Below, one piece after another: positions 3,421 through 63,958 of a stretch of 64,000 bases of DNA (positions are counted from its first letter, which is position 1; each line of letters begins with the position of its first letter). Source of the stretch: Deltaproteobacteria bacterium (GTDB lineage: Bacteria; Myxococcota_A; UBA9160; UBA6930); the NCBI GenBank assembly GCA_016875395.1, contig VGRF01000010.1, forward strand, positions 65,065 to 129,064, given 5' to 3'. The position numbers and the translations under genes are program-made. The notes beneath the pieces were generated by a model. The model saw only the letters and a program-made list of their open reading frames with translations, searched no databases and was not told the DNA's origin.

Positions 3421-4590
3421 ATGGCGGGCGTGAAGGTCGTCGATCTCACGATCGCGCTCTCCGGACCGTGGGCGATCGGATTGCTCGCGGATCAGGGCGC
3501 GGAGGTGATCAAGATCGAGCCGCCGGGGATCGGCGACATCGGGCGCTGGGTGGGCGTCGCGCGCGGCGGCGTCTCGGCGATGGCGCAGTTCGCGAATCGC
3601 GGGAAGCGCTCGCTGTGCGTGAACCTCCAGACCGACGAGGGGCGCGACATCGTGCGCGCGCTGGCAATGCGTGCCGACGTGTTCGCGCAGAACTTCCGGC
3701 CCGGCGTGATCGAGCGATTAGGGCTCGGCTACGACGAGCTGCGTCGCGACAACCCAGAGCTCGTCTACCTCTCGATCAGCGGCTTCGGCGACACGGGCCC
3801 CTACGCGGAGAAGAGCGCCTACGACCCTGTCGTGCAGGCGTACGGCGGCCTCGCCGCGACGCAGGCCGGGCGCGACGGACCGCCGCAGCTGATTCGGCAC
3901 ACCGCAGCCGACAAGATCAGCTCGCTCACCGCGTCACAGGCCGTGACCGCCGCGCTCTTCGCGCGCGCGAACGGGCGCGGCGGGCAGCACGTGCGCGTGC
4001 CGATGCTCGACGCAGTGGTGAACTTCGTGTGGGCCGACGCCGCCGGGAACGAAGTGCTGCTCGACGCGGATCACTCGCAGCCTTCGAGCTTCGCGCGCGA
4101 CCAGAAGCTCTGGCCGACGAAGGACGGCTTCGTGATCGCGGCGCCCACCGGCGACGAGGACACGGCGCGCATCTGCCGCGCCGCGGGCGTCGACGGTTAC
4201 GACGACCCGCAGACGAAGCTGATGCAGCGCCGCGCGAACCCCGGCCCGTTCCAAGAGTTGTTAAGGCGCGTGCTCGAGAGCGTGGCGCAGATGACGACCG
4301 CCGAGGCGATGGAGCGCTTCGATCGCGAGAAGGCGCCTGCCGGCGCCGTGCTCGGGCCCGAGTCGCATCACCTCGATCCGCACGTCGCCGCGACGGGGCT
4401 CCTGGAAGACAGCGTGCACCCCGCCGCGGGCCGCGTGCGCCAGCCGCGTCCCGCCGCGCGCTTCGAGCGCACGCCCGCGCGCATCGGCGCGCCCGCACCG
4501 ACGCTCGGGCAGCACACGGACGAGATCCTGCGCGAGCTCGGCTTCGCGGATCGCATCGCCGCGCTGCGGGAGAAGAAGGTGGTGGCGTAG
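3421..4590 (+). CDS. Family III CoA-transferase (CaiB/BaiF type)
   Basis: Internal ATG (codon 114) of ORF 3082..4590. MAGVKVVDLTIALSGPWAIGLLADQGAEVIKIEPPGIGD is the typical N-terminus of this family. Confidence 0.85.
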   Translation: MAGVKVVDLTIALSGPWAIGLLADQGAEVIKIEPPGIGDIGRWVGVARGGVSAMAQFANRGKRSLCVNLQTDEGRDIVRALAMRADVFAQNFRPGVIERLGLGYDELRRDNPELVYLSISGFGDTGPYAEKSAYDPVVQAYGGLAATQAGRDGPPQLIRHTAADKISSLTASQAVTAALFARANGRGGQHVRVPMLDAVVNFVWADAAGNEVLLDADHSQPSSFARDQKLWPTKDGFVIAAPTGDEDTARICRAAGVDGYDDPQTKLMQRRANPGPFQELLRRVLESVAQMTTAEAMERFDREKAPAGAVLGPESHHLDPHVAATGLLEDSVHPAAGRVRQPRPAARFERTPARIGAPAPTLGQHTDEILRELGFADRIAALREKKVVA

Positions 4591-4596
4591 GGCGGC

Positions 4597-4648
4597 AGCG
4601 AACGTTCGAACTTCGCTCGCCTGCGGCTCGCTGCGCGCTCCGCTTGCG
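4597..4648 (-). repeat. Intergenic repeat family, copy R2 (inverted, partial)
   Basis: The reverse complement reads GCGCAAGCGGAGCGCGCAGCGAGCCGCAGGCGAGCGAAGTTCGAACG. Confidence 0.65.
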
Positions 4649-5518
4649 CTACCCGAGCTTCTTCGTCAGCAGCTCGCGGCCCGTCGCCGTGAAGCCCTCG
4701 GCGAGATAGAGCCGCTGCGCCTCGTTGCCTGGTTCCACCTCGAGATGCAGCTGCCGCACGCCGCTCGCACGCGCGTCGGCCTCGAGCGCGCGAAGCAGCG
4801 CGCGGCCGAGTCCGCGCCCTCGCGCGTCGGGCGCGACGTAGAGCTCGTCCACGAAAGCGTCGCGGCCGCGAAACTCGATCGAGTGCCCGAAGCAAAGCGC
4901 CGCGTAGCCGAGCGCGCGGCCGTTCTCGCGAGCGACGAGCATGCTCCCGCGCTGAGCGACGCCGAGGAGCTCGAGCACGGCGCTGCGCAGCGCGTCGTCG
5001 CCGGCGGCGTAACCCTCCTCGCGCTGGAATGCGTCGACGAGCGGCAGCAGCTCGGGGAGGTTGTTAGGCGCCGCGCGCTCGATCGAGACGCCAGTGGGCG
5101 CCTCGAACGCGCCGGCGTCGCCCGCCAGCCGGCGCCAAGCGATCGCGCCGAACACGAGCGCCGCGATCTCGCCAGCGTGCAGCGCAAAGCCGAGTGCGTT
5201 CGGCGCACCCGCGAGCGCGAAGCTCACCACGCGCGCGCTCGCGAGCCCCGCGTAGAGCAGGAGCTGCGCCGCGAGCCCGACGCGCACGAGCGCTTCGTTC
5301 GCGCGCGCCGCGAGCGCGAGCAACAAGCCGCACGCGAGCTGCAGCCCGCCATACACCGCGCGCACGTCGTTGTCCGCGGTGGCGCCGCTGAGCGCGAGCC
5401 CGACGCGCTCCGCGAGCGCATGGGGCGCGAGCAAGAACGCGGCGCCGATCGCGAAGAAAGGCAGCGCGCTCGCGGCGAGCACGAAGCGGGCGAAACCGAT
5501 GCCGCGCGTGCGACTCAC
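4649..5518 (-). CDS. Fusion protein: N-terminal 4-helix membrane domain (DUF4345-like) + C-terminal GNAT N-acetyltransferase
   Basis: 289-aa ORF. The first roughly 125 aa are hydrophobic helices. The C-terminus reads VDELYVAPDARGRGLGRALLRALEADA (GNAT motif A, acetyl-CoA loop). Confidence 0.75.
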   Translation of the reverse strand: MSRTRGIGFARFVLAASALPFFAIGAAFLLAPHALAERVGLALSGATADNDVRAVYGGLQLACGLLLALAARANEALVRVGLAAQLLLYAGLASARVVSFALAGAPNALGFALHAGEIAALVFGAIAWRRLAGDAGAFEAPTGVSIERAAPNNLPELLPLVDAFQREEGYAAGDDALRSAVLELLGVAQRGSMLVARENGRALGYAALCFGHSIEFRGRDAFVDELYVAPDARGRGLGRALLRALEADARASGVRQLHLEVEPGNEAQRLYLAEGFTATGRELLTKKLG

Positions 5519-6042
5519 CGGACGCGGGCAGAGAACGTCGCGAAGAGGACTTCACCGACGACGCGGTCCGGCGGAGGAGCGAGTGGCGTCGCACTCGTCA
5601 CTGCCCGAAGCGTGCTGCGCGCCGCGGCATCACTCGTCGAGCTGAGAACCCTCGCGTAGGTGACACAGCCGTTCGCCGCGACCTGGAACTCCATCTCGAC
5701 CGTCGCGCTGACCGAGGTCGGCCCGGTCCAGTGGCGAAGGACTCGGGCCCTGCCGGCGCGCAGATAGGCTTCGGCCTCGCGTTTGTGCTCGTCCGGCGTA
5801 CGGACCCCATACGTGCTTTGCACGGCAGCGGGCAGCACCGCATCACGCCCAGGCGGCGGTGGACTCGGGGGGCGAGGCTGCGCCGCGGCGCCGTTCGAGC
5901 CAGCGAGGGGGTCGGTTCGTCCGAACGAGTAGGCCTCTTCGCGCGTGATCGGCGTTTCACGAAGATCCGGGCACGCGATGCGCGGGGGATTCGCGCAGGC
6001 GATGCACGCGAGTCCGAGGAGTGCGAAGCGTCGAGACCTCAT
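5515..6042 (-). CDS. Putative lipoprotein, unknown function
   Basis: Internal ATG (codon 37) of ORF 5515..6150. MRSRRFALLGLACIAC is a signal peptide with a lipobox-like LAC, followed by a Pro-rich linker. Confidence 0.55.
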   Translation of the reverse strand: MRSRRFALLGLACIACANPPRIACPDLRETPITREEAYSFGRTDPLAGSNGAAAQPRPPSPPPPGRDAVLPAAVQSTYGVRTPDEHKREAEAYLRAGRARVLRHWTGPTSVSATVEMEFQVAANGCVTYARVLSSTSDAAARSTLRAVTSATPLAPPPDRVVGEVLFATFSARVR

Positions 6043-6073
6043 AACAACCTCGCGGCCGAAGCTATCACGCGCC

Positions 6074-6619: not shown

Positions 6620-6668
6620 CGCGTGTCCTCCGCTCACGCGCGGAGAACGGCGAGCGAGCCGCGCGACG

Positions 6669-7597: not shown

Positions 7598-7606
7598 ACG
7601 CGGCCG

Positions 7607-8043: not shown

Positions 8044-8535
8044 ATGCACCGCACCGCACTCTTTTCGCTCGCCGCCGCCGGGCTGCTCGCCGCAACGCTC
8101 GCCTTCGCCTTCGCCGACGCCGCGAGCGTCGACTACCAGACCGGCTATCGCGAGTGGACCCACGTGAAGTCGATGGTGATCGAAGAGGGCCACCCGCTCT
8201 TCGCGAGCTTCGGCGGCATTCACCACCTCTACGCGAACGAGAAGGCGATCGAGGGCTACCGCGCGGGCAAGTTTCCCGACGGCGCGGTGATCGCGTTCGA
8301 TCTGCTCGAAGCCGCGCGCGCCGAAGGCGCCGTGACCGAGGGCGCACGCAAAGTGCTCGGCGTGATGCAGAAGGACGCCGCGAAGTTCGCTGCCACCGGC
8401 GGCTGGGGCTTCGAAGGATTCGCGGGCGGCGACGCGACGAAGCGCGCCGTCGGCGCGAACGCGGTGGAAGCTTGTTATGGCTGCCACGCGTCGCAGGCGG
8501 ATCGCGACTACGTGTTCAGCGCGTGGCGCGAGTGA
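8044..8535 (+). CDS. Cytochrome P460-family haem protein
   Basis: Has a signal peptide and a single C-terminal CYGCH haem-c motif. YREWTHVKS...GIHHLYAN is typical of P460. Confidence 0.7.
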   Translation: MHRTALFSLAAAGLLAATLAFAFADAASVDYQTGYREWTHVKSMVIEEGHPLFASFGGIHHLYANEKAIEGYRAGKFPDGAVIAFDLLEAARAEGAVTEGARKVLGVMQKDAAKFAATGGWGFEGFAGGDATKRAVGANAVEACYGCHASQADRDYVFSAWRE

Positions 8536-9966: not shown

Positions 9967-10735
9967 CGCGCTGCATCCGTCGCCCGAGGTGCTGGGAGCG
10001 TGCGTCGACGGCGCGCTGGCGGCGCGAGAGAGCGCCGAGGTCGAGGCGCATGCGCGCACGTGCGAGACGTGCGCCGGGGAGCTGCGCGCGCTGGCCGCAC
10101 TGAAGACGCAGCTGCGCGATGGCACGGGCGTCGGCGCCGACCCGGCGTTCGATGCGCGCATTCGCGCAGCGCTCGATCGCGAGGATGGGCGCGCCCTGCC
10201 GCGACGCGTGCGGCCGCGCTGGCCGTACGCTGCGCTCGCCGCGGCCGCCGCAGCGCTGTTGTTATGGGCCGCGCTGCCGCGAGCGGTCGACCTGCCTGCA
10301 GAAGCCGCAGTGCTCGCGCGCGAAGCCGCCGCGCAGCCGAGCGCGCGGACCCCGGCCGCGGCGCTCGAAGCGCGCTTCGCCGCAGCGGAGCTGCCCTTCG
10401 CAGCGCGCGTGCTCGATCTGGGCATGATGGGCTGGGAGATCGCGTCGGGGGAGGTCAGCCGGCTCGCAGAGCGCCCGAGCACTCAAATCCTCTATCGGGA
10501 CGCTACGGGTCGTTCGCTGCTGTGCGTGATGCTCGAGGCGCGCGCGAGCGAGCTGCCCGACGACGCCGCGCGCTTCGACTCCGGAGCGATCACGTTCTTC
10601 GAGTTCACGCGTGGCGACGTCACGGTGGTCGCCTGGGCGGAGGGGGACGTGCTGTGCTTCCTCGCGGGTAGGCTGCCCGCAGAAGAAGTGCGCGCGCTCG
10701 CGGTGGCGAAGGCGATGCTGCCGCCGCCCTCGTAG
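9959..10735 (+). CDS. Anti-sigma factor (zf-HC2 type)
   Basis: Overlaps the sigma gene by 8 nt. N-terminal H-x3-C-x2-C motif (EAHARTCETCAGEL) and a central TM helix. Confidence 0.7.
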   Translation: MSDALHPSPEVLGACVDGALAARESAEVEAHARTCETCAGELRALAALKTQLRDGTGVGADPAFDARIRAALDREDGRALPRRVRPRWPYAALAAAAAALLLWAALPRAVDLPAEAAVLAREAAAQPSARTPAAALEARFAAAELPFAARVLDLGMMGWEIASGEVSRLAERPSTQILYRDATGRSLLCVMLEARASELPDDAARFDSGAITFFEFTRGDVTVVAWAEGDVLCFLAGRLPAEEVRALAVAKAMLPPPS

Positions 10736-10750: not shown

Positions 10751-11182
10751 TCAGCTCGCGACGAGCCCGAGCGCGGCGATCGCTGCTTTCGCCACTTCGG
10801 CGTCGCGCGCCTGGTCCGCGCCCGAGACGCCGATCGCGCCTAACAAGAGCCCGTTCTCGACGACGGGGTAGCCGCCGTCCGCGCCGATGTAGCCCGGGAT
10901 CGCGTGGATGATTTGCTGCTCGCTCGCCGGGATGCTCGCGACGTACGCGCCCCAGGCGCGCGTCGACATGCCCGTATTCACCGCGGTGAACGCCTTGTCG
11001 CGCGCGGTGTTCGCGGCGATGCGCGGCGCGCCCTCGAAGCTGAGCCAGCCCGCGAGCTGGGCCGACGAATCCATCACCGCGATGTGCACGCGGATGCCCA
11101 GCGCGCGCGACTTCGCGGCGGCGGCGTGGATCAGCTTCTCGGTCGCTTCGGTGCTGAGCGTGGCGCGCGGTGCGCTGTTCAT
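10751..11182 (-). CDS. GlcG/HbpS-like haem-binding protein (DUF336)
   Basis: Last 143 codons of ORF 10751..12310. GGYPVVENGLLLGAIGVSGADQARDAEVA is the family signature. There is a 4-nt overlap with the upstream P450. Confidence 0.7.
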   Translation of the reverse strand: MNSAPRATLSTEATEKLIHAAAAKSRALGIRVHIAVMDSSAQLAGWLSFEGAPRIAANTARDKAFTAVNTGMSTRAWGAYVASIPASEQQIIHAIPGYIGADGGYPVVENGLLLGAIGVSGADQARDAEVAKAAIAALGLVAS

Positions 11183-12420
11183 GGCGTGGCTCCTCGTCGC
11201 GGTTCGTACGTGATGTGCAGCGCGCGCAGCGTACGCAGCGAGAGGCCGGGCAGATACTCGGGCGCGAAGCCGGGCGCGAGCGCGATGCGGTCGAGTCGCT
11301 CGAGTAGCGCGGCGAACGCGAGCTGAAGCTCGAGCCGCGCGAGCGGCGCGCCAATGCAGTGATGCTCGCCTTGGCTGAAGGCCATGTGCGCGCCGGCGTT
11401 CGGGCGCTGCAGATCGAGCGCGTCCGGGTTCGCGAACACCTCGGGATCGCGGTTCGCGGCGGCGAAGCGCACGTGCACCATCGCGCCGCGCGGAATCAGG
11501 GCGCCGCCCACGACGCCGTCGGCCACGGCGAAGCGGAAGAAGCCCTGGCTCGGCGACTCGAGCCGCAGCACTTCCTCGACGAAGGTGCGCAGCAGCGCCG
11601 GCTCGCGGCGCAGCTCGTCCGCGACGTCGGGGCGCTGCGCCAATAACAACACGCCCGATGCGATGGCGCTCGTCGCCGTCTCGTGCCCGCCCACGAGCAG
11701 GTGCTCGGCGATGCCCATGCGGTCCGTGGGGGTGAGACGCGAGCCGTCCGGCAGCGTGTCGTGCACCAAGTCGCTGAGGATGTCCTCGCGCGGCGCGTGC
11801 TCGCGCTCGGCCATGCGCGCAGCGAGGTAGCGCTGCAGCTCGAGCCCGAGCCGCGCCACTTCGAGCTCGCGTTCGAGCGTCAGCGTGAAGCCGAGCGGCT
11901 CCACCCACGCGTCGCTCCACGCCTTGATGCGCGGCGCGTCCTCCGGCGGAAGCCCGAGGCGATTCGCGATCACGTGAATCGGCAGCGGCGCCGCGAAGCG
12001 CGCGATCAGCTCGCACGCGCGGGAGTCGAGCAGCGCGTCCGCGAGGCGCGCCACGATCGCGCGCAGAAACGGCTCGCTCGCGCGCACACGGCCCGCCGTG
12101 AACGACGTGTTGACGAGCGCGCGAAAGCCGCGGTGCTCGGGCGGATCGGTCTGCAGCTTCGTGTTGCGCGCGAAGCCCTCGCGCGCGAGCAGCTCCGCCG
12201 CCTCCGCGTGGCGGAACATCGAGAAGCCCGCCTTGCCGAGCAGGTCGTTCGACCAGATCTCGGGATGCGACAGCACGTGCTGCACGTCGCGATAGCGCGT
12301 CACGACCCACGCGTTGATCTCGGGCATGAAGTACACGCCGTGCTCGCGCAGCGCGGCGTGGTAGGCGTACGGGCTCTGCTGCACCGCGGGATCGAGCAAG
12401 CTCGCGTCGCTGGGCTTCAT
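11179..12420 (-). CDS. Cytochrome P450
   Basis: Internal ATG (codon 145) of ORF 11179..12852. Contains GGHETT (I-helix), ESP (ExxR region) and FSQGEHHCIGAPLA (Cys-ligand loop). Confidence 0.9.
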   Translation of the reverse strand: MKPSDASLLDPAVQQSPYAYHAALREHGVYFMPEINAWVVTRYRDVQHVLSHPEIWSNDLLGKAGFSMFRHAEAAELLAREGFARNTKLQTDPPEHRGFRALVNTSFTAGRVRASEPFLRAIVARLADALLDSRACELIARFAAPLPIHVIANRLGLPPEDAPRIKAWSDAWVEPLGFTLTLERELEVARLGLELQRYLAARMAEREHAPREDILSDLVHDTLPDGSRLTPTDRMGIAEHLLVGGHETATSAIASGVLLLAQRPDVADELRREPALLRTFVEEVLRLESPSQGFFRFAVADGVVGGALIPRGAMVHVRFAAANRDPEVFANPDALDLQRPNAGAHMAFSQGEHHCIGAPLARLELQLAFAALLERLDRIALAPGFAPEYLPGLSLRTLRALHITYEPRRGATP

Positions 12421-12439: not shown

Positions 12440-13615
12440 TCACGCGCTCGCCCACAGCGCGGCGGGCGCGCGCACGGTGGGGTTGTCGCTGCGCCACGCG
12501 ACCTCGCCCTCGAGGCGCAGCGCCGGCGCCGCGCGCAGCAGCGCGCCCACCGCGAGCTGCGCTTCGAGGCGCGCGAGCGCGGCGCCGAGGCACACGTGGC
12601 GGCCGCCGCCGAACGCGAGCGAGCGTTCGGGCGCGCGCGCGAGGTCGAAGCGATCGGGCGACGGGAAGCGCGCGGGGTCGCGGCTCGCGGCGGCGATCGA
12701 GATGAGCACGTGCGCACCAGCGGGAATCTCGGCGCCGCCGAGCTCCAGCGCGCGCGCCGCGAAGCGGCTGCACGAGAGCGCGGGCGGCTCGAAGCGCAGC
12801 GTCTCCTCGATCGCGGCGGCCAGCGCCGCGTCGTCCGCGCGCGCTCTCGCAAGTTGTTCGGGATGCGCGTGCAGGCACAGCAGCGTGTTCGCGATCAGCC
12901 CCGTCGTCGTGTCGATCGCCGCGGACACGAGCAGCACGCAGTTCGCGACCACCTCGAGCTCGCTCAGCGCGCCGAGCTGCGCGTCCGGCGCGCGCAGCCG
13001 CGCGAGTAGGCCCTCGGGCGGAGCGCTCGCGGCGCGCTGATTCGCGGCGAAGAAGTACTCCGCGAGCGCCGCGAGAAAGCCGCCGCCCTCGGCGCTCGCG
13101 CCAGGTCGCAGCAGCGGCTCCACCCGAGCCTGCCACTCCTCGCGCTCGATGCAGAACAGCGCGCGAATCACCTCGCTCGGCAGCGCGAACGCAAGGCGCG
13201 CAACGAGGTCGACGCGGCCGTGCACTGCTTCGCGCGCGACGCCCTGCGCGAGCCGCTCCGAGGTTGCGGCGATGAACGGCCGTAACAACTCGACGCGCCG
13301 CGGCGTTAACTCGCGGCGCACGAGGCCACGCGCGCGCTCGTGAGTGGCTCCGTCTTGCGCCATCAGCCAGTGCGTCATCACGTCGTAGAGGAGGCCGCTG
13401 CGCGCGCCGAACGACTCCGCGACGCCGCTGCCCGCCACGAGCTCCGGCGCACGCAGCGCGCGCTCGGCCTCGGCGTAGCGCGTCACGAGGAACACGTTGC
13501 CCGCCAGCGCGTGCACCGCCGCGGCGTCGCGCAGCTCCGCGAGCGCCGCGTGCATGTCCTCGCGGCGATGCAGCGCATAGAGATCCCAGCCTTGGGCGAA
13601 CGGCATGGCCCGCAT
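12440..13615 (-). CDS. Cytochrome P450
   Basis: 391-aa ORF with the FGGGRHVCLGAALARLE Cys-ligand loop. Tandem with the downstream P450. Confidence 0.85.
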   Translation of the reverse strand: MRAMPFAQGWDLYALHRREDMHAALAELRDAAAVHALAGNVFLVTRYAEAERALRAPELVAGSGVAESFGARSGLLYDVMTHWLMAQDGATHERARGLVRRELTPRRVELLRPFIAATSERLAQGVAREAVHGRVDLVARLAFALPSEVIRALFCIEREEWQARVEPLLRPGASAEGGGFLAALAEYFFAANQRAASAPPEGLLARLRAPDAQLGALSELEVVANCVLLVSAAIDTTTGLIANTLLCLHAHPEQLARARADDAALAAAIEETLRFEPPALSCSRFAARALELGGAEIPAGAHVLISIAAASRDPARFPSPDRFDLARAPERSLAFGGGRHVCLGAALARLEAQLAVGALLRAAPALRLEGEVAWRSDNPTVRAPAALWASA

Positions 13616-13713: not shown

Positions 13714-14655
13714 GTGAAAGCGGTGCGATTCGAGCAAGGCGCGGTGCGCGTAGTGGACGCGGAGGCGCCGCGCGGCGAAGGCGTGCGGGTGCGCGTCAGC
13801 GCGTGCGGCATTTGCGCGAGCGACCTCGCGATGCTCGACGCGGGCTTCCCGATCGCGGGCATCCCCGGCCACGAGATCGCGGGCACGCTCGCGGACGGCA
13901 CCGCGGTCGCGATCGAGCCCGTCGCGCCGTGCGGCGCGTGCGAGTTCTGCCGCACCGGCGACTACCAGGTTTGCCGTGCGGGCGTCGAGATCATCTACGG
14001 CGTCGGTCGCAACGGCGGCATGGCGGACGAGATCGTCGTGCCCGAGCGCTGCCTCGTCGCGCTGCCGCGCGGACTCGATCCGCGCCACGCGGCGCTCGTG
14101 GAGCCGCTCGCGGTCGCGGTGCACGGCCTCCGCCGCGCAGGGATTCGCGGCGGCGAGCGCGTCGCGATCATCGGCGGCGGCGCGATCGGCCTGTGCGCGA
14201 CGGCGGCGGCCGTCGCGGCCGGCTGTCAGGTCGCACTCGCCGCGCGCCACGATCGCCAGCGCGAAGCCGGCGCGCGCCTCGGCGCGAAGCCGCTCGCCGC
14301 GGGCGAGGCCGACATCGCGATCGACTGCGCGGGCACCACGCAATCGCTCGAAGAGTGCGCCGCCGCGCTGCGGCCGAACGGGATGTTGTTATTGCTCGCC
14401 GCCGCCTGGGGCCCGATCGCGCTGCCAGGCTTCACGTTCGTCGCGAAGGAGCTCGCGCTCACCGTCGCCTCGATGTACGGCCGGAGCGCCCAAGGGCGCG
14501 ACGCCGACGCAGCCGCCGCGCTGCTCGCCGCGAAGCCGCAAATCGGCGAGCTGCTGATCACGCACCGCTTCCCGCTCGCAGCCGCCGCCGAAGCCTTCGC
14601 TACCGCGCGCGACCGCAAGGCGGGAGCGATCAAGGTCGTGCTCGAGCCGGCCTGA
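13714..14655 (+). CDS. Zinc-dependent alcohol dehydrogenase (MDR family)
   Basis: GICASDL...GHEIAG (catalytic Zn), CGACEFC (structural Zn) and IIGGGAIGL (NAD fold). GTG start. Confidence 0.8.
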   Translation: MKAVRFEQGAVRVVDAEAPRGEGVRVRVSACGICASDLAMLDAGFPIAGIPGHEIAGTLADGTAVAIEPVAPCGACEFCRTGDYQVCRAGVEIIYGVGRNGGMADEIVVPERCLVALPRGLDPRHAALVEPLAVAVHGLRRAGIRGGERVAIIGGGAIGLCATAAAVAAGCQVALAARHDRQREAGARLGAKPLAAGEADIAIDCAGTTQSLEECAAALRPNGMLLLLAAAWGPIALPGFTFVAKELALTVASMYGRSAQGRDADAAAALLAAKPQIGELLITHRFPLAAAAEAFATARDRKAGAIKVVLEPA

Positions 14656-27154: not shown

Positions 27155-27192
27155 CTAACAGCTCGCACCAGCATGCGGCATCGAGCGGCGCC

Positions 27193-38557: not shown

Positions 38558-39991
<1,434 letters not shown>

Positions 39992-49477: not shown

Positions 49478-51217
49478 ATGCCGACTCATCAACTTCCGCC
49501 GCTCGGGCACAACCCCTCGTCGCGCGCGCAGGGCACGACACCCGGCAGCTTCGCGAACGTGCCCGACATCGGCGGCCCGCGCAGCTTCAGCTCGCCCGAC
49601 ACGCCGGGCATGCCTCAGCCTTCGGAGAAGACCGCGTGGCACTTCTTGCCGCGCGGCTGGAAGCGCGACGCGGCGACCGGCTTTGCGACTGCGCCGGCGG
49701 GCTTCGAGCCTTCGACGCAGCTCGAGTTCGCGCGCCTCGGAGTTGTTACGGCGCAGATGCGCCGCGTCGCCGAGCGCGAGCCGCACCTCACGCCCGAGCA
49801 GGTGCGCGACGAGGTCGCCGCTGGGCGCATGGTGATTCCCGCGAACAAGGTGCACCTCGGCTACGCGCTCGACCCGATGGCGATCGGCCGCGCCAGCACG
49901 ACCAAGGTGAACGCGAACATGGGCGCGTCGCCGATTTCGAGCTCGACCGACGAAGAGGTGGAGAAGCTGCGCTGGGCCGAGAAGTGGGCGGCCGACACCG
50001 TGATGGATCTCTCGACCGGCGGAAACCTCGACGCCACGCGCGCCGCGATCATCAGGGCCTCGACCGTTCCGATCGGCACCGTGCCGATCTACTCGATGAT
50101 CATCGGGCGCAAGATCGAGGATCTCGACGAGCGCATGATTCTCGACGGCCTCGAGCATCAGGCGAAGCAGGGCGTCGACTACATGACCGTGCACGCGGGC
50201 GTGCTGCAGGGGCACCTGCCGTTCGTGCAGCGGCGGCTGATCGGCATCGTGTCGCGCGGCGGCTCGCTGCTCGCGAAGTGGATGATCACGCACGGCAAGC
50301 AGAACCCGATGTACACGCTGTGGGACGACATTTGCGAGATCCTGCGGCGCTACGACGTGACGTTCTCGATCGGCGACGGCCTGCGCCCCGGCGGCCTCGC
50401 GGACGCGACCGATGCCGCGCAGCTCGGCGAGCTCGAGACGCTCGGCGAGCTCACCGAGCGCGCCTGGCAGCACGGTGTGCAGGTGATGGTCGAGGGTCCG
50501 GGGCACGTGCCGTTCGATCAGATCGAATACAACATGAAGCTGCAGCGCCGGCTCTGTCACGGCGCGCCGTTCTACGTGCTCGGGCCACTCGTGACGGACA
50601 TGTTCCCCGGCTACGACCACATTACGAGCGCGATCGGCGCGACGGCCGCCGCGTATCACGGCGCCGCGATGCTCTGTTACGTGACGCCGAAGGAGCATCT
50701 CGGGCTCCCAAAGAAGGACGACGTGAAGCAGGGCTGCGTCGCCTACAAGATCGCGGCGCACGCGGCCGACGTGGCGCTCGGCATTCCCGGCGCGCGCGAT
50801 CGCGACGACGAGCTGACGAAGGCGCGCGCCGCGCTGAACTGGGAGCGCCACTTCGAGCTGTCGTTCGATCCCGATCTCGCGCGCGCGTACCACGACGAGG
50901 ATCTCGACGTCGACACCGACTTCTGCGCGATGTGCGGGCACGACTGGTGCTCGGTGCGCATCAGCAAGGAGATCAACCAGTTCGTGAGCGGCAAAGACGA
51001 GAAGTACGCGTGGGCGTCGCCGAAGATCTCCGCGGCCCTCACCAGCGAGCAGAAGGCGGTGCTGGAGAAACGCGGCGTGCTGTCGGCCGCGGAGATCCAC
51101 CGCCTCGCGAGCAAGACGCGCGCGAAGGTCGGCGCCGACCACGGCGAGAAGGCGGCGTGCCACAGCGACGTCGCATCGCCCGAAGAGGCGCAGCGCCTGC
51201 AAGGCGATCCAGCCTAA
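49478..51217 (+). CDS. thiC: Phosphomethylpyrimidine synthase
   Basis: Internal ATG of ORF 49406..51217 after [25 protein letters not shown] and C-terminal [10 protein letters not shown] (CxxCxxxxC cluster). Confidence 0.95.
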
Positions 51218-51370
51218 CAACTCGCGTGAGCCGAGAAGCAAAGCCACGAGGCGCGTGAACGCCTCGGGGCTCGCGGCTTCCGGACCTCACCCCCCAGCTC
51301 GGTCCGGTTACGTGGTCGTAACTTCGGCCGATCTGCGCTCGTCTTGAGTGAAATTTTCGGAGATTGCGCG

Positions 51371-54214: not shown

Positions 54215-54862
54215 GTGACCTTTTCGCTGCCGATCTTCCCGCTCGCGGGCCCAGCGCTTTTCCCCCACTGCGCGGCGCCGCTGCACATCTTCGAGCCGCG
54301 CTATCGCGCCATGGTGGCCGACGCGATCGCGGGCGAGCGGCGCATCGGCATGGTCACGGTGCGCAGCGACGCGCTGGGCGAGATGTCCGGGGATCCGCCG
54401 GTGTTCGCGATCGGCTGCGCGGGCTTCATCGCGCAGCATCAGCGCCTCGCGGACGGCCGGTACCTAATCACTCTGCAGGCGACCTCGCGCTTCCGCATCG
54501 TGAGCGAGCTGCCGCGGCCCGCGGACCGGCTCTATCGCATCGGCAAGGTCGAGCTGTTAGGGGAAGAGCTCGGCGACGAAGCGCGCGCGCGAGCGCAGCG
54601 CGACGAAGTCGTACGCGAGCTGCGCGAGCTGCTCGGCGATGCCGGCGCTGGAGGCGAGCTCGATCTCGCGCGCATCGAGCAGCTCGAGCTCGGGCGCTTT
54701 GCCGGCGAGATCTGCCAAGCGCTGCAGCTGCCTGGCCCCGAGAAGCAGGCGCTGCTCGAGGCCGCGACGACCGAGCAGCGGATTGAACGGCTTGCGCAGA
54801 CGCTCGCCTTCTATCGGACACTGAGCCGCGCGCCTGGGGGCGACGGCGCCACGCTGCACTGA
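54215..54862 (+). CDS. LON substrate-binding (Lon N-terminal) domain protein
   Basis: LPIFPLAGPALFPHCAAPLHIFEPRYRAMV. GTG start. Confidence 0.7.
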   Translation: MTFSLPIFPLAGPALFPHCAAPLHIFEPRYRAMVADAIAGERRIGMVTVRSDALGEMSGDPPVFAIGCAGFIAQHQRLADGRYLITLQATSRFRIVSELPRPADRLYRIGKVELLGEELGDEARARAQRDEVVRELRELLGDAGAGGELDLARIEQLELGRFAGEICQALQLPGPEKQALLEAATTEQRIERLAQTLAFYRTLSRAPGGDGATLH

Positions 54863-56793: not shown

Positions 56794-56819
56794 AAGGGGA
56801 GGCGCTGTCTCCTGACCGC

Positions 56820-58079
56820 CTACTTCCCGGCGTGACTCGCTGCCTCAATACGCTCCTTCACCCGCGCCACTCCAGCCTCCCCGCGGAAGCGCGACGGCCC
56901 CGCCATCGGGCGCAGGTGCTCGGGCTCGAGCGAGGGCGGATCCTGCGCGGGGTCGTCGAAGCGCCGCAGCACCTTGTAGGTCGTGCTGCGCTCGACGGGC
57001 GTGCGGCCCATCTCGCGGATCAGGCGGCGCATCTCCTCGGGCGCGAGGTTCTCGCCGAAGTCCGCGCCGGACTCGCGGCTGATCGACTCCTCCATCAGCG
57101 TGCCGCCGAAGTCGTTCGCGCCAGCTGTCAGGGATACCTGCGCGAGCTTCGGCCCCATCTTCACCCACGACATCTGCACGTTCTGGATGTGCGGGCGCAA
57201 GAACAGGCGCGACACCGCGATCATCTTCAGGTCTTCGGCCGCCGACGGGCCGGGCCGCGTGATGTCGACGTGGCCGAGCGTGTTCTTCTCGTGAATGAAG
57301 CCGAGCGGCACGAACTCGGTGAAGCCGCCCGTCTCCTTCTGAATGTCGCGAATCGTGCCAAGGTGCTTCGCGACGTGGTGCGGCTTCTCGAGGTGCCCGT
57401 ACATGATCGTCGCCGTCGAGCGCAGCCCGACGCGATGCGCGGTCTTCACGATCTCGATCCAGCGGTCGGTCATCAGCTTGTTAGGTGAGAGCTGGCGGCG
57501 GACCGAGTCGTCGAGGATCTCCGCCGCGGTGCCGGGGATCGTCCCGAGGCCCGCTTCCTTCAACCACGTCAGCAGCTGCTCGAAGGACCAGCCGCTCTGC
57601 TTCTGCATGAAGCTGATCTCTTCCGGCGAGTACGCGTGGATGTGCAGCTGCGGGTACTTCGCCTTGATCGAGGTGAGGATCAGCTTGTAGTGGTGTTGGT
57701 CCTTGTGCGGGTCGATGCCGCCTTGGATGCACACTTCGGTCGCGCCGCGTGAAACCGCGTCGTCGCACTTCGCGAGGATCTGCTCCATCGAGCGGTCGTA
57801 GGCGTCGTGCTCGTCGCGGTGGCGCGCGAATCCGCAGAACGAGCAGCCGACGTAACAAATGTTGGTGAAGTTGATGTTGCGGCACACCACGAACGAGACG
57901 TCGTCGCCTTTGTCGGCCTTGCGCGCGGCATCCGCGGTGAGGAGCAGCGCGGTGTAGTCCGCGCCCTGCGCCGCGAGCAGCGCGATCGCGTCTTCGTGCG
58001 TGAGCTCGCGGCCCGCGAGCGCGCCCTCGAGCAGCCGCGCGAAGTCGGGCTTCACGTCCGAGAGGAGTCGCTCCAGCAT
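56820..58079 (-). CDS. cofH: FO synthase subunit 2 (7,8-didemethyl-8-hydroxy-5-deazariboflavin synthase CofH)
   Basis: Last 419 codons of ORF 56820..59198. Radical-SAM CYVGCSFCGF, plus GTIPGTAAEIL and ATIMYGHLE. ATGA overlap with cofG. Confidence 0.85.
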   Translation of the reverse strand: MLERLLSDVKPDFARLLEGALAGRELTHEDAIALLAAQGADYTALLLTADAARKADKGDDVSFVVCRNINFTNICYVGCSFCGFARHRDEHDAYDRSMEQILAKCDDAVSRGATEVCIQGGIDPHKDQHHYKLILTSIKAKYPQLHIHAYSPEEISFMQKQSGWSFEQLLTWLKEAGLGTIPGTAAEILDDSVRRQLSPNKLMTDRWIEIVKTAHRVGLRSTATIMYGHLEKPHHVAKHLGTIRDIQKETGGFTEFVPLGFIHEKNTLGHVDITRPGPSAAEDLKMIAVSRLFLRPHIQNVQMSWVKMGPKLAQVSLTAGANDFGGTLMEESISRESGADFGENLAPEEMRRLIREMGRTPVERSTTYKVLRRFDDPAQDPPSLEPEHLRPMAGPSRFRGEAGVARVKERIEAASHAGK

Positions 58080-59281
58080 CAGGCAGCCTCCAGGCTCATG
58101 CGCGGGCGCGCGTAGAAATCGCCGGTCGCCGCGCGCTGCACGGCCTCGTACACGTTCGGCTCGAAGAACTCGGGCTTGCGCGCGTGGCGCGGATACACCG
58201 GCAGGCGCTCGACGAGGCGCTTGCCGTGCGCCTCGGTGCGCGCGCGCAGATCGCGCAGCGCAGGCCACGGCGCTTCGGGGTTGATGAAGTCGACCGTCAC
58301 CGGCGAAACGCCGCCCCAGTCGCTCACGCCGGCGGCGAGCAGCTCGCCGAACGACTCGGGCGAGAGATTCGGCGGCGCCTGCACGCTGATCTCGCGCCCC
58401 AGCACGAGCCGCGCGAGCGCCGACCAGTCCGCGACCTCGGCGTCCGTCACCGCCGCCGCCCAGCGCATGCGCGTGCCGGGCTTCGGGTGGAAGGGCTGGA
58501 TGATCGCTTCTTGGATGTGCCCGTAGCGATCGTCGAGCTCGCGCATCGCGATGAGTGTGTCGACGCGCTCCTCGAGATTCTCTCCGATCCCTAACAACAT
58601 GCCCGTGGTGAACGGAATCTTCAGCTCGCCCGCCTCGGCGTGCATGCGCAGCCGCAGCGCCGGGTCTTTGTCGGGCGCGTACTGATGCGCCATGCCCTTG
58701 CCGCGCAGGCGCGGGCTCACGGACTCGAGCATCAGGCCCATCGACGCGTTCCAGTGGCGCAGCGCCGCCATCTCTTCCTGCGTGAGGATCCCGGCGTTCG
58801 TGTGCGGGAGCATTCCGCCCTCGAACGAGACGCGGCAGCCCTGCACGAGATACTCCGCGGTGCTGCGGTAGCCGACGCCCGCAAGCCACTCGCGATACGA
58901 CCGGTAGGCGATCTCGGGCTTGTCGCCGAGGCAGAACAGCGCCTCGATGCAGCCCGTGCGCACGCCGCCGCGCGTCACGTCCGCGACTTCTTCGAGCGTG
59001 TAGGTCTTCGCCTCGGGCGAATCGTCCTGCTTCGCGAACGTGCAGTAGGCGCAGCGGTCGCGGCACAGGTTCGTGAGCGGGATGAAGACGTTGCGCGAGA
59101 ACGTGACCGCGTCGCCGAGCACGCGGCGCGTGCCCTCCGCCGCCGCCTCGAACACGGCGCCGCGCACGCTCGCGTCGCGCATGTGCTCCGCGAGCCAAAC
59201 CGCATCGGCGCGGGCGAGCCGCCCCGCTTCGAGGGCGTCGCGGGAAATGGCTTGCGCTTGCGCGGAGTCGGGGGAGGTCAC
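58079..59281 (-). CDS. cofG: FO synthase subunit 1 (CofG)
   Basis: ORF 58079..59458. Radical-SAM CRDRCAYCTF, plus FTTGMLLGIGE. GTG at 59281 is chosen because the longer ORF overlaps the upstream gene; the start is uncertain. Confidence 0.8.
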   Translation of the reverse strand: MTSPDSAQAQAISRDALEAGRLARADAVWLAEHMRDASVRGAVFEAAAEGTRRVLGDAVTFSRNVFIPLTNLCRDRCAYCTFAKQDDSPEAKTYTLEEVADVTRGGVRTGCIEALFCLGDKPEIAYRSYREWLAGVGYRSTAEYLVQGCRVSFEGGMLPHTNAGILTQEEMAALRHWNASMGLMLESVSPRLRGKGMAHQYAPDKDPALRLRMHAEAGELKIPFTTGMLLGIGENLEERVDTLIAMRELDDRYGHIQEAIIQPFHPKPGTRMRWAAAVTDAEVADWSALARLVLGREISVQAPPNLSPESFGELLAAGVSDWGGVSPVTVDFINPEAPWPALRDLRARTEAHGKRLVERLPVYPRHARKPEFFEPNVYEAVQRAATGDFYARPRMSLEAA

Positions 59282-61100: not shown

Positions 61101-61135
61101 CGAGGGGTCTCCGGGGAAGCGGCGCACCCTATCGG

Positions 61136-62950
61136 ATGCCCCTAGGGCGAGCCACGAATCCCGACCTGCGCGCCTGTGAATCGCGGGCGAGGAGACGCGG
61201 TCCCGCGTGCTGGCGCCTCGATCGGCACGAAAGCGGAGGCAGAAGCCGCCTTCCATCCGGGGTTGAAGGGTTCATTTGCACGCAAGTTGCGGTCAAGAGG
61301 GCTTGCGGGGATGCCGATTCAAACCGCGACGTTGACTCGACACCGATCAGCCGCACGCCGCTCATCGCGTGGCTCCGCCAGAGCCTCGCGCGCGATCTCG
61401 CCGTGCTCGTGGTCGGGCTGTGCCTGGTCGCCGCAATCGTCACCGCGCTGACGTCGCGTGAGGTGCTAGACACCGCAGTTCGCCACGGCGTTCGTGCGGA
61501 GCTCGAGCGGGAGTTCGATCGTGCGCAAACCGCACTGCAGCTCTCGCGAAGACAAGAGTTCGAGGGAGCGAACGTAATCGCGCGCGACGATCTGCTGCTC
61601 GAATGCCTCGCACGCGGCAGCGAAGGGCACAGCGCCTTGCGGGCGCGGCTAGAGGTGCTGTTCGCGCGCGAGCCCGAAGCCATCGGCTTTGCGCTGGCTC
61701 GGCCCGGCGCGCGCGAGCCCTTCGTCATGGTCGGCCAGTGGGGCCGCTCGCACTGGCAGTTCGCGCTCGCACAGCGCACCTCCGCGGGCAGCTCCGTTGC
61801 CGCGACAGAGGTCGAAGGCGCTCCGATCGACCTCGCGCGGATCGCGATTGCGACGCGCGACGGGTCCGTGCTGCTGTGGATCGCGTTCGATCCGCTGCGC
61901 GCACTCGACGTGCTCTACGACGAGGGCCAGATCGACGCCGCGATCACGGGCGCGCGAGGAGACAAGCTCGCCGGCTCCCTCGCCGCGTCTGCGCTCACGC
62001 GCGAGATCGGCTTCCGCGACGCCAAAGGATCCGATGGCGCACCGCTGCTCGTGCTGCGTCGCGAGCTCGCCGGAACGCCGTGGCAGCTCGTCATCGCGCG
62101 TCCGCTGCCCGCGCTTCCGGCAAACACGCTGCTCAGCCTCGTGCTCGGGAGCGTTCTCACGGCGGTCGTCGCCGGGGGCCTCGCGTTCGGCGTCGGCGCG
62201 TGGCGCCTGCGCCCGCTGCTCGATCTCGCCGAGGGCGCGGGCCGGCTCGCCGGCGGCGACTTCAACGTGCGCATGCCCGTGAGCGAAGCGCACGACGAGG
62301 TGCAGACGCTCGCGCGCGCGTTCAACGACATGGCCGCGCAGCTCGAGGGCCAGCGGCGTGCGCTCGAGGAGCGCAACCGGGATTTGTTACGGGCGAACGA
62401 GGTACTCGAGCAGCTCTCGATCACCGACGGACTCACCCACCTCCACAATCACCGCCACTTCCACGACCAGTTCTCGCGCGAGGTGAAGCGCGCCGACCGC
62501 AGCGAGCAGCCGCTTTGCCTGCTGCTCGTCGACATCGACGACTTCAAGCTGCTGAACGACCGCTACGGCCACGCTGCGGGCGACCGCGTGCTCGCGGCGG
62601 CCGCTCAGCTGATCAACCTGCAAATCCGCGAGTCGGACTACGTCGCCCGCTACGGCGGAGAGGAGTTCGCGCTGCTCCTGCCACACACGCCCCTCGAAGG
62701 CGCCACCGCGCTCGGCGAGAAGATTCGGACCGCGATGTCGGAGCACGAGTTCCCGATCGAGGAGCGCGACATCGTCGTGCGCGTGACGGTCTCCGTGGGT
62801 GTCGCGCTCTACTCCACGACCACCGACGAGACCTTCGATGCCGCCGATCGCGCGCTGTACGAGGCGAAGGCCGCGGGCAAGGACTGCGTCTTCACGGCGG
62901 CGCCGCTCGATCGGACGCCGGCTCCATCTCCGCTGAAGCGCCGCCGCTGA
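61136..62950 (+). CDS. Membrane sensor diguanylate cyclase (periplasmic domain-HAMP-GGDEF)
   Basis: Two TM helices, HAMP (LAGGDFNVRMP...EVQTLARAFNDMA), I-site RESD and active site GGEEF. The start is uncertain; ATG 61136 lies only 36 nt from the divergent reductase start. Confidence 0.8.
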   Translation: MPLGRATNPDLRACESRARRRGPACWRLDRHESGGRSRLPSGVEGFICTQVAVKRACGDADSNRDVDSTPISRTPLIAWLRQSLARDLAVLVVGLCLVAAIVTALTSREVLDTAVRHGVRAELEREFDRAQTALQLSRRQEFEGANVIARDDLLLECLARGSEGHSALRARLEVLFAREPEAIGFALARPGAREPFVMVGQWGRSHWQFALAQRTSAGSSVAATEVEGAPIDLARIAIATRDGSVLLWIAFDPLRALDVLYDEGQIDAAITGARGDKLAGSLAASALTREIGFRDAKGSDGAPLLVLRRELAGTPWQLVIARPLPALPANTLLSLVLGSVLTAVVAGGLAFGVGAWRLRPLLDLAEGAGRLAGGDFNVRMPVSEAHDEVQTLARAFNDMAAQLEGQRRALEERNRDLLRANEVLEQLSITDGLTHLHNHRHFHDQFSREVKRADRSEQPLCLLLVDIDDFKLLNDRYGHAAGDRVLAAAAQLINLQIRESDYVARYGGEEFALLLPHTPLEGATALGEKIRTAMSEHEFPIEERDIVVRVTVSVGVALYSTTTDETFDAADRALYEAKAAGKDCVFTAAPLDRTPAPSPLKRRR

Positions 62951-62956
62951 AGATCC

Positions 62957-63958
62957 CTAATAGGTCTTCGGCTCTCGCCGATAGCGAGGCCGCGGCTCGC
63001 CCGGCGGCTGCGTGCGCCAGCGGCGGTGCGCCCACGTCCACAGCTCCGGCGCAGCGCGGATCTCCGCCTCGACCGCGCGGGTCATCTGCCGCACGTTCGC
63101 GGCGAGCGATGCGTCGTCGTCGCGCGAGCGCTCGATGTCGAGCGCGGGGTAGAAGCGCGCGACGTGGCGCGCGGGATCCATCGCGTCTCGGTGCAAGAAC
63201 ATCGGCACGATCGGCGCGCCGGTGGACATCGCGAGCTGCGCGGGGCCGCTGCGCGTGCAGGCGAGCCTTCCGAGGAACGGGACGAAGATTCCCTCGTCCG
63301 CGCCCACGTTCTGGTCGAGCAGCAGCGCGAGCAGGCTGCCCTTGCGCAGCGCGCGCACTACGCCCAGCGCGGCGCTCCCGCGCGGCAAGTACGTCGCGCC
63401 GCTCTCGGCGCGGCGGGCGACGATCACCTCGTCGAGCCCCGCGTCGTCGCGCACGCGGTGGACGACGGTGAGCGGGTAGCCGCGCGCGGTGAGCACGGCG
63501 GCGAAGAGCTCCCAGGAGCCGAAGTGCGCGGTCATCACGATCACGCCGCCGCCGGGCGCCGCAGCGCGCGCCGCGTCGAGATGTTCGAGGCCCTCGAAGC
63601 GCACGCGCGCGAGCACCTGCTCCGGCGAGCGGCGCCCGAGCCACGCGAGCTCGACCAAGCTGCGGCCGAGATTCTCGAACGAGCGCACGAGCCCGCGCGT
63701 TCGCCGAGCTTCGCTCCACTCGGGAAACGCGATGCGCAGATTGATCCGCGCGTCGCGCGTGCGCGGCAGCCCGAGGCGCGCCCAGCTGCGGCCGGCAAAC
63801 GCGCCGAGCGCGAGCGCCGCGTCGTCGGGCAGCTGCGCAACCGCCCATAACAACCCACGCGCAGCGACGCCTCGCAGGCTGGATCGCGGCGGCTCCTTCG
63901 CGTCGCGAGCGCTCAGACGAGCCCCAGCGAGCGCTCGAACTCCTCGAGCTCCGCCCAC
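62957..63958 (-). CDS. LpxL/HtrB-family lysophospholipid (lipid A late) acyltransferase
   Basis: IVMTAHFGSWE (HX4E-like motif), LLLDQN and a C-terminal WxWxHRRW motif (WTWAHRRWR). Confidence 0.7.
   Translation of the reverse strand: MGGARGVRALAGARLSARDAKEPPRSSLRGVAARGLLWAVAQLPDDAALALGAFAGRSWARLGLPRTRDARINLRIAFPEWSEARRTRGLVRSFENLGRSLVELAWLGRRSPEQVLARVRFEGLEHLDAARAAAPGGGVIVMTAHFGSWELFAAVLTARGYPLTVVHRVRDDAGLDEVIVARRAESGATYLPRGSAALGVVRALRKGSLLALLLDQNVGADEGIFVPFLGRLACTRSGPAQLAMSTGAPIVPMFLHRDAMDPARHVARFYPALDIERSRDDDASLAANVRQMTRAVEAEIRAAPELWTWAHRRWRTQPPGEPRPRYRREPKTY

Follow-up and report, generated by a model that had tools for sequence, protein, structure and literature searches.

Why should the rarest leucine codon of a GC-rich genome stand almost always directly behind one particular partner? 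The question arises from a 64-kb stretch (70.6% GC) of the genome of a Deltaproteobacteria bacterium placed among the Myxococcota (contig VGRF01000010.1, positions 65,065 to 129,064; hereafter the window), in which an initial annotation had noticed that the codon TTA tends to follow TTG, and that the hexamer TTGTTA formed by the two is present in 27 copies. We report here that the codon pair is the most visible part of a short, asymmetric and hyper-abundant DNA motif, whose copies lie in several reading frames and on both strands, and that this motif is dense in some members of a clade of uncultured Myxococcota and scarce or missing in their close relatives.

TTGTTA is hyper-abundant in the window

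All 27 copies were recovered on recount at exactly the coordinates first given, 15 of them on the plus strand and 12 present there as TAACAA (Table 1). Dinucleotide-preserving shuffles of the window predict 1.14 copies (maximum 4), an order-2 Markov model 0.47 and base composition 3.1, and among the AT-rich hexamers of the window the over-representation of TTGTTA is by far the highest. Using a self-trained codon model we called 59 genes, which agree with the JGI gene calls wherever the two overlap. Within these genes the in-frame pair TTG-TTA was counted 15 times, the number originally claimed, versus 0.105 predicted from Leu codon usage in Leu-Leu dipeptides (Poisson P=1e-27). The comparison with single-codon usage proposed in the initial annotation, run here on the window, thus leaves the pair far above expectation. 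The pairs TTA-TTG (2 versus 0.1 expected) and TTG-TTG (4 versus 0.4 expected) are raised as well.

TTA is the rarest Leu codon of the window (22 of 2034 Leu codons). About 20 TTA codons had been reported, 17 of them behind another Leu codon; the partners are confirmed (15 after TTG, 2 after CTG) but the total is 22, with the 5 remaining codons following CGC, CGA, GAG, GAC and GGG. All 15 TTG-TTA pairs described as Leu-Leu are in frame, but in two of them, at 24337 and 63853, TTG is a probable start codon. A separate context bias runs through the 210 Leu-Leu dipeptides of the window, in which CTG-CTC is found 93 times versus 40 expected, CTC-CTC 14 versus 70 and CTC-CTG 11 versus 40; this bias is ordinary, strong and unrelated to the TTGTTA motif.

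Outside the window, 9.8 kb of the same genome contain 7 further TTGTTA copies, which account for 7 of the 19 TTA trinucleotides there and have the same flanking bases. Contigs of JGI samples 3300020200, 3300020109 and 3300020222, of one ENA assembly and of several Logan assemblies match the window at 100% identity; contigs of the window genome include Ga0194121_10000805 and ERZ27247963 k141_1506269/k141_1252159. An assembly or sequencing artefact is ruled out by these identical independent assemblies and by the occurrence of the motif in metagenome-assembled genomes (MAGs) of unrelated studies. A dispersed repeat or mobile element is ruled out as well, the similarity being free of indels and stopping at 12 nt.

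The word is enriched in all frames and on both strands

Copies were sorted by reading frame and compared with a synonymous-codon shuffle that leaves the encoded proteins and the total codon usage unchanged. In the window, TTGTTA is found 15 times as in-frame TTG-TTA versus 0.12 in the shuffle, 4 times on the sense strand out of frame versus 0.15, and 6 times antisense versus 0.59, so that the 10 genic copies other than TTG-TTA are themselves 10- to 26-fold above expectation. These 10 copies impose rare codons ending in T on a genome whose third positions are approximately 90% GC; the thiC site, for instance, uses GTT GTT where ThiC orthologues have ATC/GTC GTC/GTG ACG. The readings listed earlier for these copies (V-V-T, Cys-Tyr and antisense AAC AAC/AAG) were all observed, and an antisense gTA ACA Act (V-T-T) at 39601 has to be added to them.

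A preference for the mRNA-sense strand had also been proposed, and 20 of the 27 copies are indeed in this orientation, 19 within coding sequences and one at 6042 that overlaps a start codon (TTGTT-ATG). We therefore counted the opportunities, that is, the places where the protein sequence permits TTGTTA by synonymous change alone. On the sense strand, the word is used at 13 of 207 opportunities in frame 1 (L-L), 2 of 108 in frame 2 ([FILV]-V-x) and 2 of 3 in frame 3 (x-C-Y); on the antisense strand, frame 1 offers 0 opportunities, as the word would there contain the stop codon TAA, while 1 of 47 is used in frame 2 ([ILV]-T-x) and 5 of 14 in frame 3 (x-N-[KN]). Overall use is 17 of 318 for sense and 6 of 61 for antisense (Fisher P=0.23), which leaves no residual sense preference. 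The strand bias hence disappears as a property of the signal and results from coding constraints, including the TAA of antisense frame 1. Similarly, Leu-Leu dominates because it is the commonest compatible dipeptide (207 sites) and because its route to TTGTTA, from CTG-CTG to TTG-TTA by three transitions, is fully synonymous. In related genomes, TTGTTA is mostly hosted by frames other than Leu-Leu, and the antisense strand carries about half of the copies.

The enrichment of out-of-frame and antisense copies, their common flanks and an antisense use of opportunities at least equal to that of the sense strand support the first of the two explanations offered initially, namely that a DNA word is selected and that Leu-Leu is its cheapest host. 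We conclude with high confidence that the signal acts at the level of DNA, not of translation or mRNA.

TTGTTA is the core of a longer motif

Flanking bases were compared over 34 sites, those of the window and of the 9.8 kb of adjoining genome. A G is located two bases downstream of TTGTTA in 30 of the 34 sites and three bases downstream in 23. The base directly after the hexamer is almost never A and the base directly before it never; A is over-represented at the second position upstream. The same flanking bases recur across all frame and strand classes. The exact 12-mer GAGTTGTTACGG is found four times in the window in two different frames, two copies reading E-L-L-R and two V-V-T; allowing one mismatch raises the number of matches to 12, versus 0.06 expected. 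When 73.8 kb were scanned with a position-weight matrix at a threshold of 10 bits, 48 sites were obtained, versus 2.8 in shuffles; among them are GAG-CTGTTA-GG, GAG-TCGTTA-CGG and GAG-TTGTTG-CGG. TTGTTA is the core of a 9- to 12-bp double-stranded DNA motif of consensus (G/C)R-A-G TTGTTA B-G-G, with GAGTTGTTACGG as its best form; like its core, this 12-mer is non-palindromic. The motif, for which GAG-TTGTTA-CGG can stand as a consensus, is enriched approximately 25- to 55-fold independently of frame and of the transcribed strand.

The motif is patchily distributed among close relatives

Syntenic loci from uncultured Myxococcota MAGs, designated here by L numbers, were retrieved with the RND pump gene of the window; an exact-protein look-up of the pump gave no match, probably owing to a difference in start codon. 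Four soil MAGs related to the window genome share its high density of TTGTTA, with 5 copies in 8.6 kb of L002, 5 in 4.2 kb of L004, 4 in 6.7 kb of L006 and 3 in 14.3 kb of L015. There are 2 copies in 22 kb of L001, 1 in 10.6 kb of L011 and 0 in the 19.6 kb of L003 and L054 together. The outgroups L005, L007 (a complete chromosome), L008, L009 and L018 have none, and L010 has one. In distant relatives (45-48% amino-acid identity) the word is at or below the expectation from composition, mostly with 0 copies. A scan of metagenomes with ThiC, which recovered mostly distant taxa at 75-85% identity that were used as negative controls (L056, at 91%, being excepted), showed approximately 40 unrelated high-GC loci to be essentially without TTGTTA; the exception is the closest locus, L056, with 3 copies. 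In a neighbour-joining tree of the RND gene, the window, L015, L001, L003, L011, L006, L004 and L002 form one star-like clade with 84-87% nucleotide identity, in which motif-rich and motif-poor members are interleaved. The motif is therefore lineage-specific and patchy even among close relatives. The motif-rich MAGs have the accessions JANNDT01, JANNRF01, DASTOI01 and DATBRS01, and the motif-poor sisters CAYWRY01, CAZCTH01, JANNKN01, CAYPSI01 and OZ245002. L001, L003, L005, L047 and L054, with 73-89% amino-acid identity to the locus, are recorded as 'uncultured Spirochaetales', which is probably a mislabel.

Whether orthologues keep TTG-TTA, a check that had been suggested at the outset, depends on the relative. 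Some motif-rich relatives keep it, as L002, L004 and L015 do at the TetR site, but window sites are identical in none of 24 aligned comparisons with motif-poor relatives, versus 32% for random hexamers. Motif-rich lineages also differ from one another. In the L002/L004 lineage, C directly follows TTGTTA in 10 of 10 sites versus 14 of 34 in the window genome (P=0.0009), and GTGTTA(C/G)G is present in 2-4 copies each in L002, L004, L052 and L011 and in none in the window. This preference for C together with GTGTTA possibly represents a dialect-like difference.

In 22 kb of motif-poor L001, Leu-Leu is encoded five times by an in-frame TTG-TTG pair (at 434, 6744, 8698, 17845 and 19162), and for two of these pairs the window has TTGTTA at the corresponding position. 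These pairs look like decayed or incipient motif sites. TTGTTG as an ancestral dialect of L001 and L003 was considered and rejected, most of its copies being ordinary antisense AAC-AAC or AAC-AAG codons kept in all relatives.

Sites arise from whatever near-match is at hand

Orthologous columns reveal several routes to TTGTTA. One leads from CTGCTG (L003, L054, L010) through TTGTTG or CTGTTA (L001, L002, L004, L015) to TTGTTA. At the CinA-like site (27469), orthologues read TTGTTG in L001, L002 and L015 or CTGCTG in L054; at the TetR site (29298), L001 has TTGTTG and L054 CTGCTG; and at the RND site (32404), TTGTTA in L006 stands beside CTGTTA in L004 and L015, TTGTTG in L002 and CTGCTG in L003 and L010. 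Another route runs from TCGTCA through TCGTTA, the state of the window at 31253 and 36463, to the TTGTTA of L002, L004, L006 and L052, and in L001 a site has been reached from CCGTCA. C>T or G>A transitions account for the majority of steps; transversions and non-synonymous changes are also seen, with TTCGCG, TCGCGA, GCACAA and TGATCA all having given rise to TTGTTA. At 26241, for example, the change from TTCGCG (L001 and L054, reading R-A-N) to TTGTTA costs an Ala-to-Asn replacement. The one-off variants of the window are almost all transition neighbours, namely CTGTTA (6 copies), TCGTTA (4), TTGTCA (6) and TTGTTG (13), with 0 copies of most transversion neighbours, a pattern that fits directional evolution to one target from any near-match available.

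What could drive accumulation of the motif

We propose that directional substitution is adding copies of the motif all along the chromosome in one Myxococcota sub-lineage, where a sequence-reading factor specific to the lineage would give motif-bearing DNA an advantage, and where Leu-Leu would host most copies of the window as the cheapest synonymous site. The likeliest setting would be DNA exchange or recombination between kin, through biased uptake, transfer or processing. Biased exchange of this kind would yield a molecular drive, as proposed for the uptake signal sequences (USS) of Pasteurellaceae and the DNA uptake sequences (DUS) of Neisseriaceae, and as recently suggested for the cyanobacterial motif HIP1. 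By analogy with these systems, uptake or exchange in particular is a tentative assignment of the driver, and we regard the combined statement of a DNA recognition motif with an exchange-type driver as evenly balanced. It is possible, but doubtful, that a narrow clade of soil and freshwater Myxococcota carries in GAG-TTGTTA-CGG an undescribed candidate sequence for uptake or exchange specificity, with drive, species dialects and repeated gain and loss. Our search of the literature on TTGTTA, 9- to 12-mers, uptake sequences or TTA codons in Myxococcota found no description of the motif.

Several observations weigh against the combined statement. Only 2 of the 27 copies are located between genes, where non-coding DNA makes up approximately 10% of the sequence, and this absence of intergenic enrichment is unlike the DUS of Neisseria. 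None of the 27 window sites forms an inverted pair or an inverted-repeat terminator, and their spacing is not significantly even (coefficient of variation of 0.79 versus 0.95 for random placement, P=0.16). The window contains no competence, pilin or candidate receptor genes. Window sites are identical in 6 of 14 comparisons with motif-rich relatives versus 40% for all hexamers, a level of conservation that fits selection and continual replenishment alike. Finally, the sample amounts to approximately 74 kb of the window genome and 35 kb of motif-rich relatives, from which 'genome-wide' is an extrapolation.

The DNA-level signatures of an exchange-driven motif would be identical to those of a cis-acting chromosomal site with an intracellular function, be it Chi-like, the loading or binding of a lineage-specific nucleoid or repair protein, or strand discrimination. 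The 25 genic sites of the window fall in 23 genes versus 18.8 expected (P=0.017), which hints at an even spread, and the sequence recognised as Chi is known to vary from lineage to lineage. However, Chi and KOPS (FtsK-orienting polar sequences) are strongly skewed with replication, and TTGTTA is not: the strand split is 15:12 over the window and, should dnaA (at 55.2 kb) mark the origin, 13:9 to the left of it and 2:3 to its right. No replication strand skew of the motif was seen in the window, where GC skew is approximately 0 and the direction of replication is accordingly not independently fixed. This absence of skew makes a Chi- or KOPS-like role less likely, and it led us to reject a primase initiation site, which would require a lagging-strand skew. 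Moreover, several TTGTTA sites lie inside a single gene of L004, which excludes a rule of one per gene, and an essential housekeeping site is unlikely to be missing from sisters at approximately 87% nucleotide identity. We consider an intracellular role unlikely. A neutral bias of repair or mutation, in which a mobile mismatch enzyme (compare Vsr with Dcm) would resolve near-matches to the motif, fits the patchy distribution through gain and loss of a mobile gene. It also fits the predominance of C>T or G>A steps, the one-off variants that are almost all transition neighbours, the equal density of the motif in coding and non-coding DNA and the conservation among motif-rich relatives, which is not above background. 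Known very-short-patch systems, however, turn T:G mismatches into C:G and so favour words with more GC. The trend seen here is the reverse, since TTGTTA is an AT-rich end point reached from GC-richer precursors. Several sites were reached through transversions and amino-acid changes, and we know of no enzyme with the required motif-ward repair property. Such a bias is an improbable explanation.

Explanations that act after transcription fare less well still. In mRNA, UUGUUA could be the target of an RNA-binding protein, of an RNase or of a small RNA, a notion in keeping with the sense orientation of most copies, with the roughly single site in each window gene that is hit and with the scarcity of AU-rich single-stranded sites to be inferred for a 70% GC transcriptome. 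It is largely refuted by the antisense copies, which are 10-fold enriched with a higher use of opportunities than sense copies and which make up about half of the sites of relatives, and by one copy that spans a stop codon into non-coding DNA; an RNA-level signal is thus highly improbable. The second of the explanations offered initially was a translational effect, in which TTA would be tolerated or preferred after TTG through reuse of tRNA-Leu(UAA) or programmed pausing. The in-frame excess and the raised TTA-TTG and TTG-TTG pairs speak for it. This explanation is refuted by the 12 copies outside the in-frame Leu-Leu class, the common flanks and the 12-mer found in two frames, all of which it leaves unexplained; in addition, the pair is nearly absent from sisters some 13% diverged that have the same overall codon usage, the copies of relatives are mainly in other frames, and published effects of codon reuse are of a few percent, not 100-fold. 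We find it barely credible. A regulon of the bldA type, dependent on a regulated tRNA-Leu(UAA), could be suggested by the rarity of TTA, yet the 22 TTA codons are spread over 20 of the 59 genes, which are of unrelated function and include housekeeping genes (neighbours of thiC, cofG/cofH, transporters), and the positions of TTA are dictated by the DNA motif. The early dismissal of such a regulon was justified, and its probability is negligible.

Comparison with known genomic motifs

For uptake sequences located in coding regions, the frames and orientations preferred depend on which codons and peptides are compatible (PMC2817400, PMC2346458), and dialects of uptake sequences exist (PMC2817400, PMC2346458, bioRxiv 10.1101/2025.10.24.684340). 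The motif described here resembles USS and DUS in being short and non-palindromic, with a strict core and weaker flanks, and in being over-represented tens-fold at approximately one copy per 1-2.5 kb, on both strands and inside genes. Common one-off variants, related species with the same motif, dialects or none, and a frame and orientation bias explained by hosting peptides and codons are further shared features. It differs from them in being AT-rich in a 70% GC genome, in its shorter strict core (6 bp plus the G two bases downstream), in the lack of intergenic enrichment and of terminator-like inverted pairs, in its phylum, Myxococcota, and in its patchiness even among species approximately 13-16% diverged, which exceeds that described for DUS.

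HIP1 (GCGATCGC) of cyanobacteria is 15- to 300-fold over-represented within and between genes without a role at the level of peptide, RNA or expression (PMC5861425), and has been linked experimentally to transformation efficiency (bioRxiv 10.1101/2024.09.10.611283). Both motifs are short and hyper-abundant, with an abundance that depends on lineage and a function long obscure in the case of HIP1. HIP1 is, however, palindromic, GC-rich and conserved phylum-wide, and contains known sites of orphan methyltransferases, whereas the present motif is asymmetric, AT-rich, confined to a narrow clade and without a known methyltransferase. Chi sites of RecBCD and AddAB are likewise short, asymmetric and over-represented words, partly lying on common codons and with lineage-specific sequences, but they are strongly co-oriented with replication and usually G-rich, in contrast to the nearly equal strand split and much higher fold-enrichment found here. 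Codon-pair bias and the autocorrelation attributed to tRNA reuse share with our observations two adjacent codons, both readable by tRNA-Leu(UAA), far above expectation; unlike these, the present enrichment is confined neither to a frame nor to the coding strand, reaches approximately 100-fold and is absent from sister genomes.

The motif is best placed beside USS, DUS and HIP1 in the small group of hyper-abundant genomic words. Such words have been described in very few lineages, and they provide windows onto uptake, recombination and self-recognition. If an exchange-type driver is correct, it would represent a third independent instance of the USS/DUS type, outside Pseudomonadota and cyanobacteria. 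An asymmetric AT-rich motif gained or lost between species approximately 13-16% apart would be a natural experiment, and its comparison could show how such a motif originates, how fast codons and amino acids are reshaped, and which gene is responsible; the latter can be sought by comparing motif-rich with motif-poor MAGs. Our results also call for caution, since a codon-pair bias of approximately 100-fold can be purely DNA-level.

Site list and local gene content

Table 1. TTGTTA copies, selected one-off variants and other features of the window. Strand is that of the word or gene; lower-case letters are flanking bases of the codons read.
Feature	Coordinates	Strand	Reading or description	Host gene	Relatives
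TTGTTA	4258..4263	+	in-frame Leu-Leu, gag TTG TTA agg	CoA-transferase, 3394-4590
TTGTTA	5061..5066	+	antisense; gene reads ccT AAC AAc (P-N-N)	GNAT/DUF4345, 4649-5518(-)
TTGTTA	6042..6047	-	overlaps ATG start; intergenic by our own gene calls	JGI-called gene, 5515-6042(-)
TTGTTA	8472..8477	+	sense, third frame, gcT TGT TAt (A-C-Y)	cytochrome P460, 8044-8535
TTGTTA	10259..10264	+	in-frame Leu-Leu	zf-HC2 anti-sigma, 9959-10735
TTGTTA	10841..10846	-	in-frame Leu-Leu	HbpS/GlcG-like, 10751-11182(-)
TTGTTA	11644..11649	-	in-frame Leu-Leu, TTG TTA ttg	P450, 11179-12420(-)
TTGTTA	13283..13288	-	in-frame Leu-Leu; exact 12-mer GAGTTGTTACGG	P450, 12440-13615(-)
TTGTTA	14386..14391	+	in-frame Leu-Leu	Zn-dependent alcohol dehydrogenase, 13714-14655
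TTGTTA	19278..19283	-	in-frame Leu-Leu	MFS, 18171-19439(-)
TTGTTA	21662..21667	-	in-frame Leu-Leu	MFS, 20924-22183(-)
TTGTTA	24337..24342	+	TTG (probable start; first start-type codon of the open reading frame), then TTA	WS/DGAT, 24337-25713
TTGTTA	26241..26246	+	antisense, cgT AAC AAc (R-N-N)	alpha/beta-hydrolase, 25724-26647(-)	common to L015
TTGTTA	27469..27474	-	in-frame Leu-Leu; exact 12-mer GAGTTGTTACGG	CinA-like, 27193-27918(-)
TTGTTA	29298..29303	+	in-frame Leu-Leu	TetR, 28791-29432
TTGTTA	32404..32409	+	in-frame Leu-Leu	RND pump, 30574-33696
TTGTTA	38117..38122	+	antisense, cgT AAC AAg (R-N-K)	hsdR remnant, 36802-38325(-)
TTGTTA	38571..38576	+	antisense, ccT AAC AAg (P-N-K)	E2 acyltransferase, 38558-39832(-)
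TTGTTA	39601..39606	+	antisense, gTA ACA Act (V-T-T)	E2 acyltransferase, 38558-39832(-)
TTGTTA	42723..42728	-	sense, second frame, gTT GTT Acg (V-V-T); exact 12-mer GAGTTGTTACGG	polyketide synthase (PKS), 41200-46710(-)
TTGTTA	49743..49748	+	sense, second frame, gTT GTT Acg (V-V-T); exact 12-mer GAGTTGTTACGG	thiC, 49478-51217
TTGTTA	51215..51220	-	TAACAA on plus strand; its TAA is the thiC stop codon
TTGTTA	57478..57483	+	antisense, ccT AAC AAg (P-N-K)	cofH, 56820-58079(-)	kept in L056
TTGTTA	57853..57858	-	sense, third frame, atT TGT TAc (I-C-Y)	cofH, 56820-58079(-)	L056: CTGTTA
TTGTTA	58592..58597	-	in-frame Leu-Leu	cofG-like radical-SAM, 58079-59281(-)	L056: CTGTTA
TTGTTA	62384..62389	+	in-frame Leu-Leu	HAMP-GGDEF, 61403-62950
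TTGTTA	63848..63853	-	TTG (start in JGI call, 298 aa), then TTA	LpxL-like acyltransferase, 62957-63853(-)
GAG-CTGTTA-GGG	20793..20798	+	one-off variant, in-frame CTG TTA
GAG-CTGTTA-GGG	54554..54559	+	one-off variant, in-frame CTG TTA
GAG-CTGTTA-GGT	27156..27161	-	one-off variant
GAG-TCGTTA-CGG	31253..31258	-	one-off variant, antisense	RND gene	TTGTTA in L002, L004, L006; TCGTCA in L001, L011, L015
GAG-TCGTTA-CGG	36463..36468	+	one-off variant		TTGTTA in L002, L052; TCGTCA in L001, L003, L011
GAG-TTGTTG-CGG	35074..35079	+	one-off variant
GAG-TTGTTG-CGG	41905..41910	-	one-off variant
AAA_14/DUF4143 ATPase gene	34747-35934	+	insertion
hsdR remnant	36802-38325	-	C-terminal, TIGR00348 positions 499-671 of 674
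Lower-GC intergenic stretch	~53.2-53.6 kb		near dnaA
Lower-GC intergenic stretch	~54.8-55.2 kb		near dnaA
dnaA	55246-56628	+	full length, TIGR00362 344.7 bits (cut-off 343.9)

The window carries dnaA without an adjoining dnaN, and no DnaA box (TTATCCACA-like, at most one mismatch) was found anywhere in it; nor were any tRNA genes. In all syntenic relatives the alignments jump from approximately 34.67 to 35.97 kb, which marks the AAA_14/DUF4143 ATPase gene as an insertion. The hsdR remnant, derived from a type I restriction subunit, has neither hsdM nor hsdS in its vicinity. The window and motif-rich L052 carry it, and motif-poor L001, L003 and L011 do not; it is truncated, and its co-occurrence with motif richness is probably a coincidence. 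The hexamers TCGATC/GATCGA are numerous in the window (164 copies versus 17.8 by base composition), but the order-2 expectation of 161 indicates that they are not a motif. Lastly, TAA ends only 4 of 58 genes of the window, thiC among them; as the thiC stop codon (51215-51217) forms the first half of a TAACAA, its selection may have been affected by the motif.

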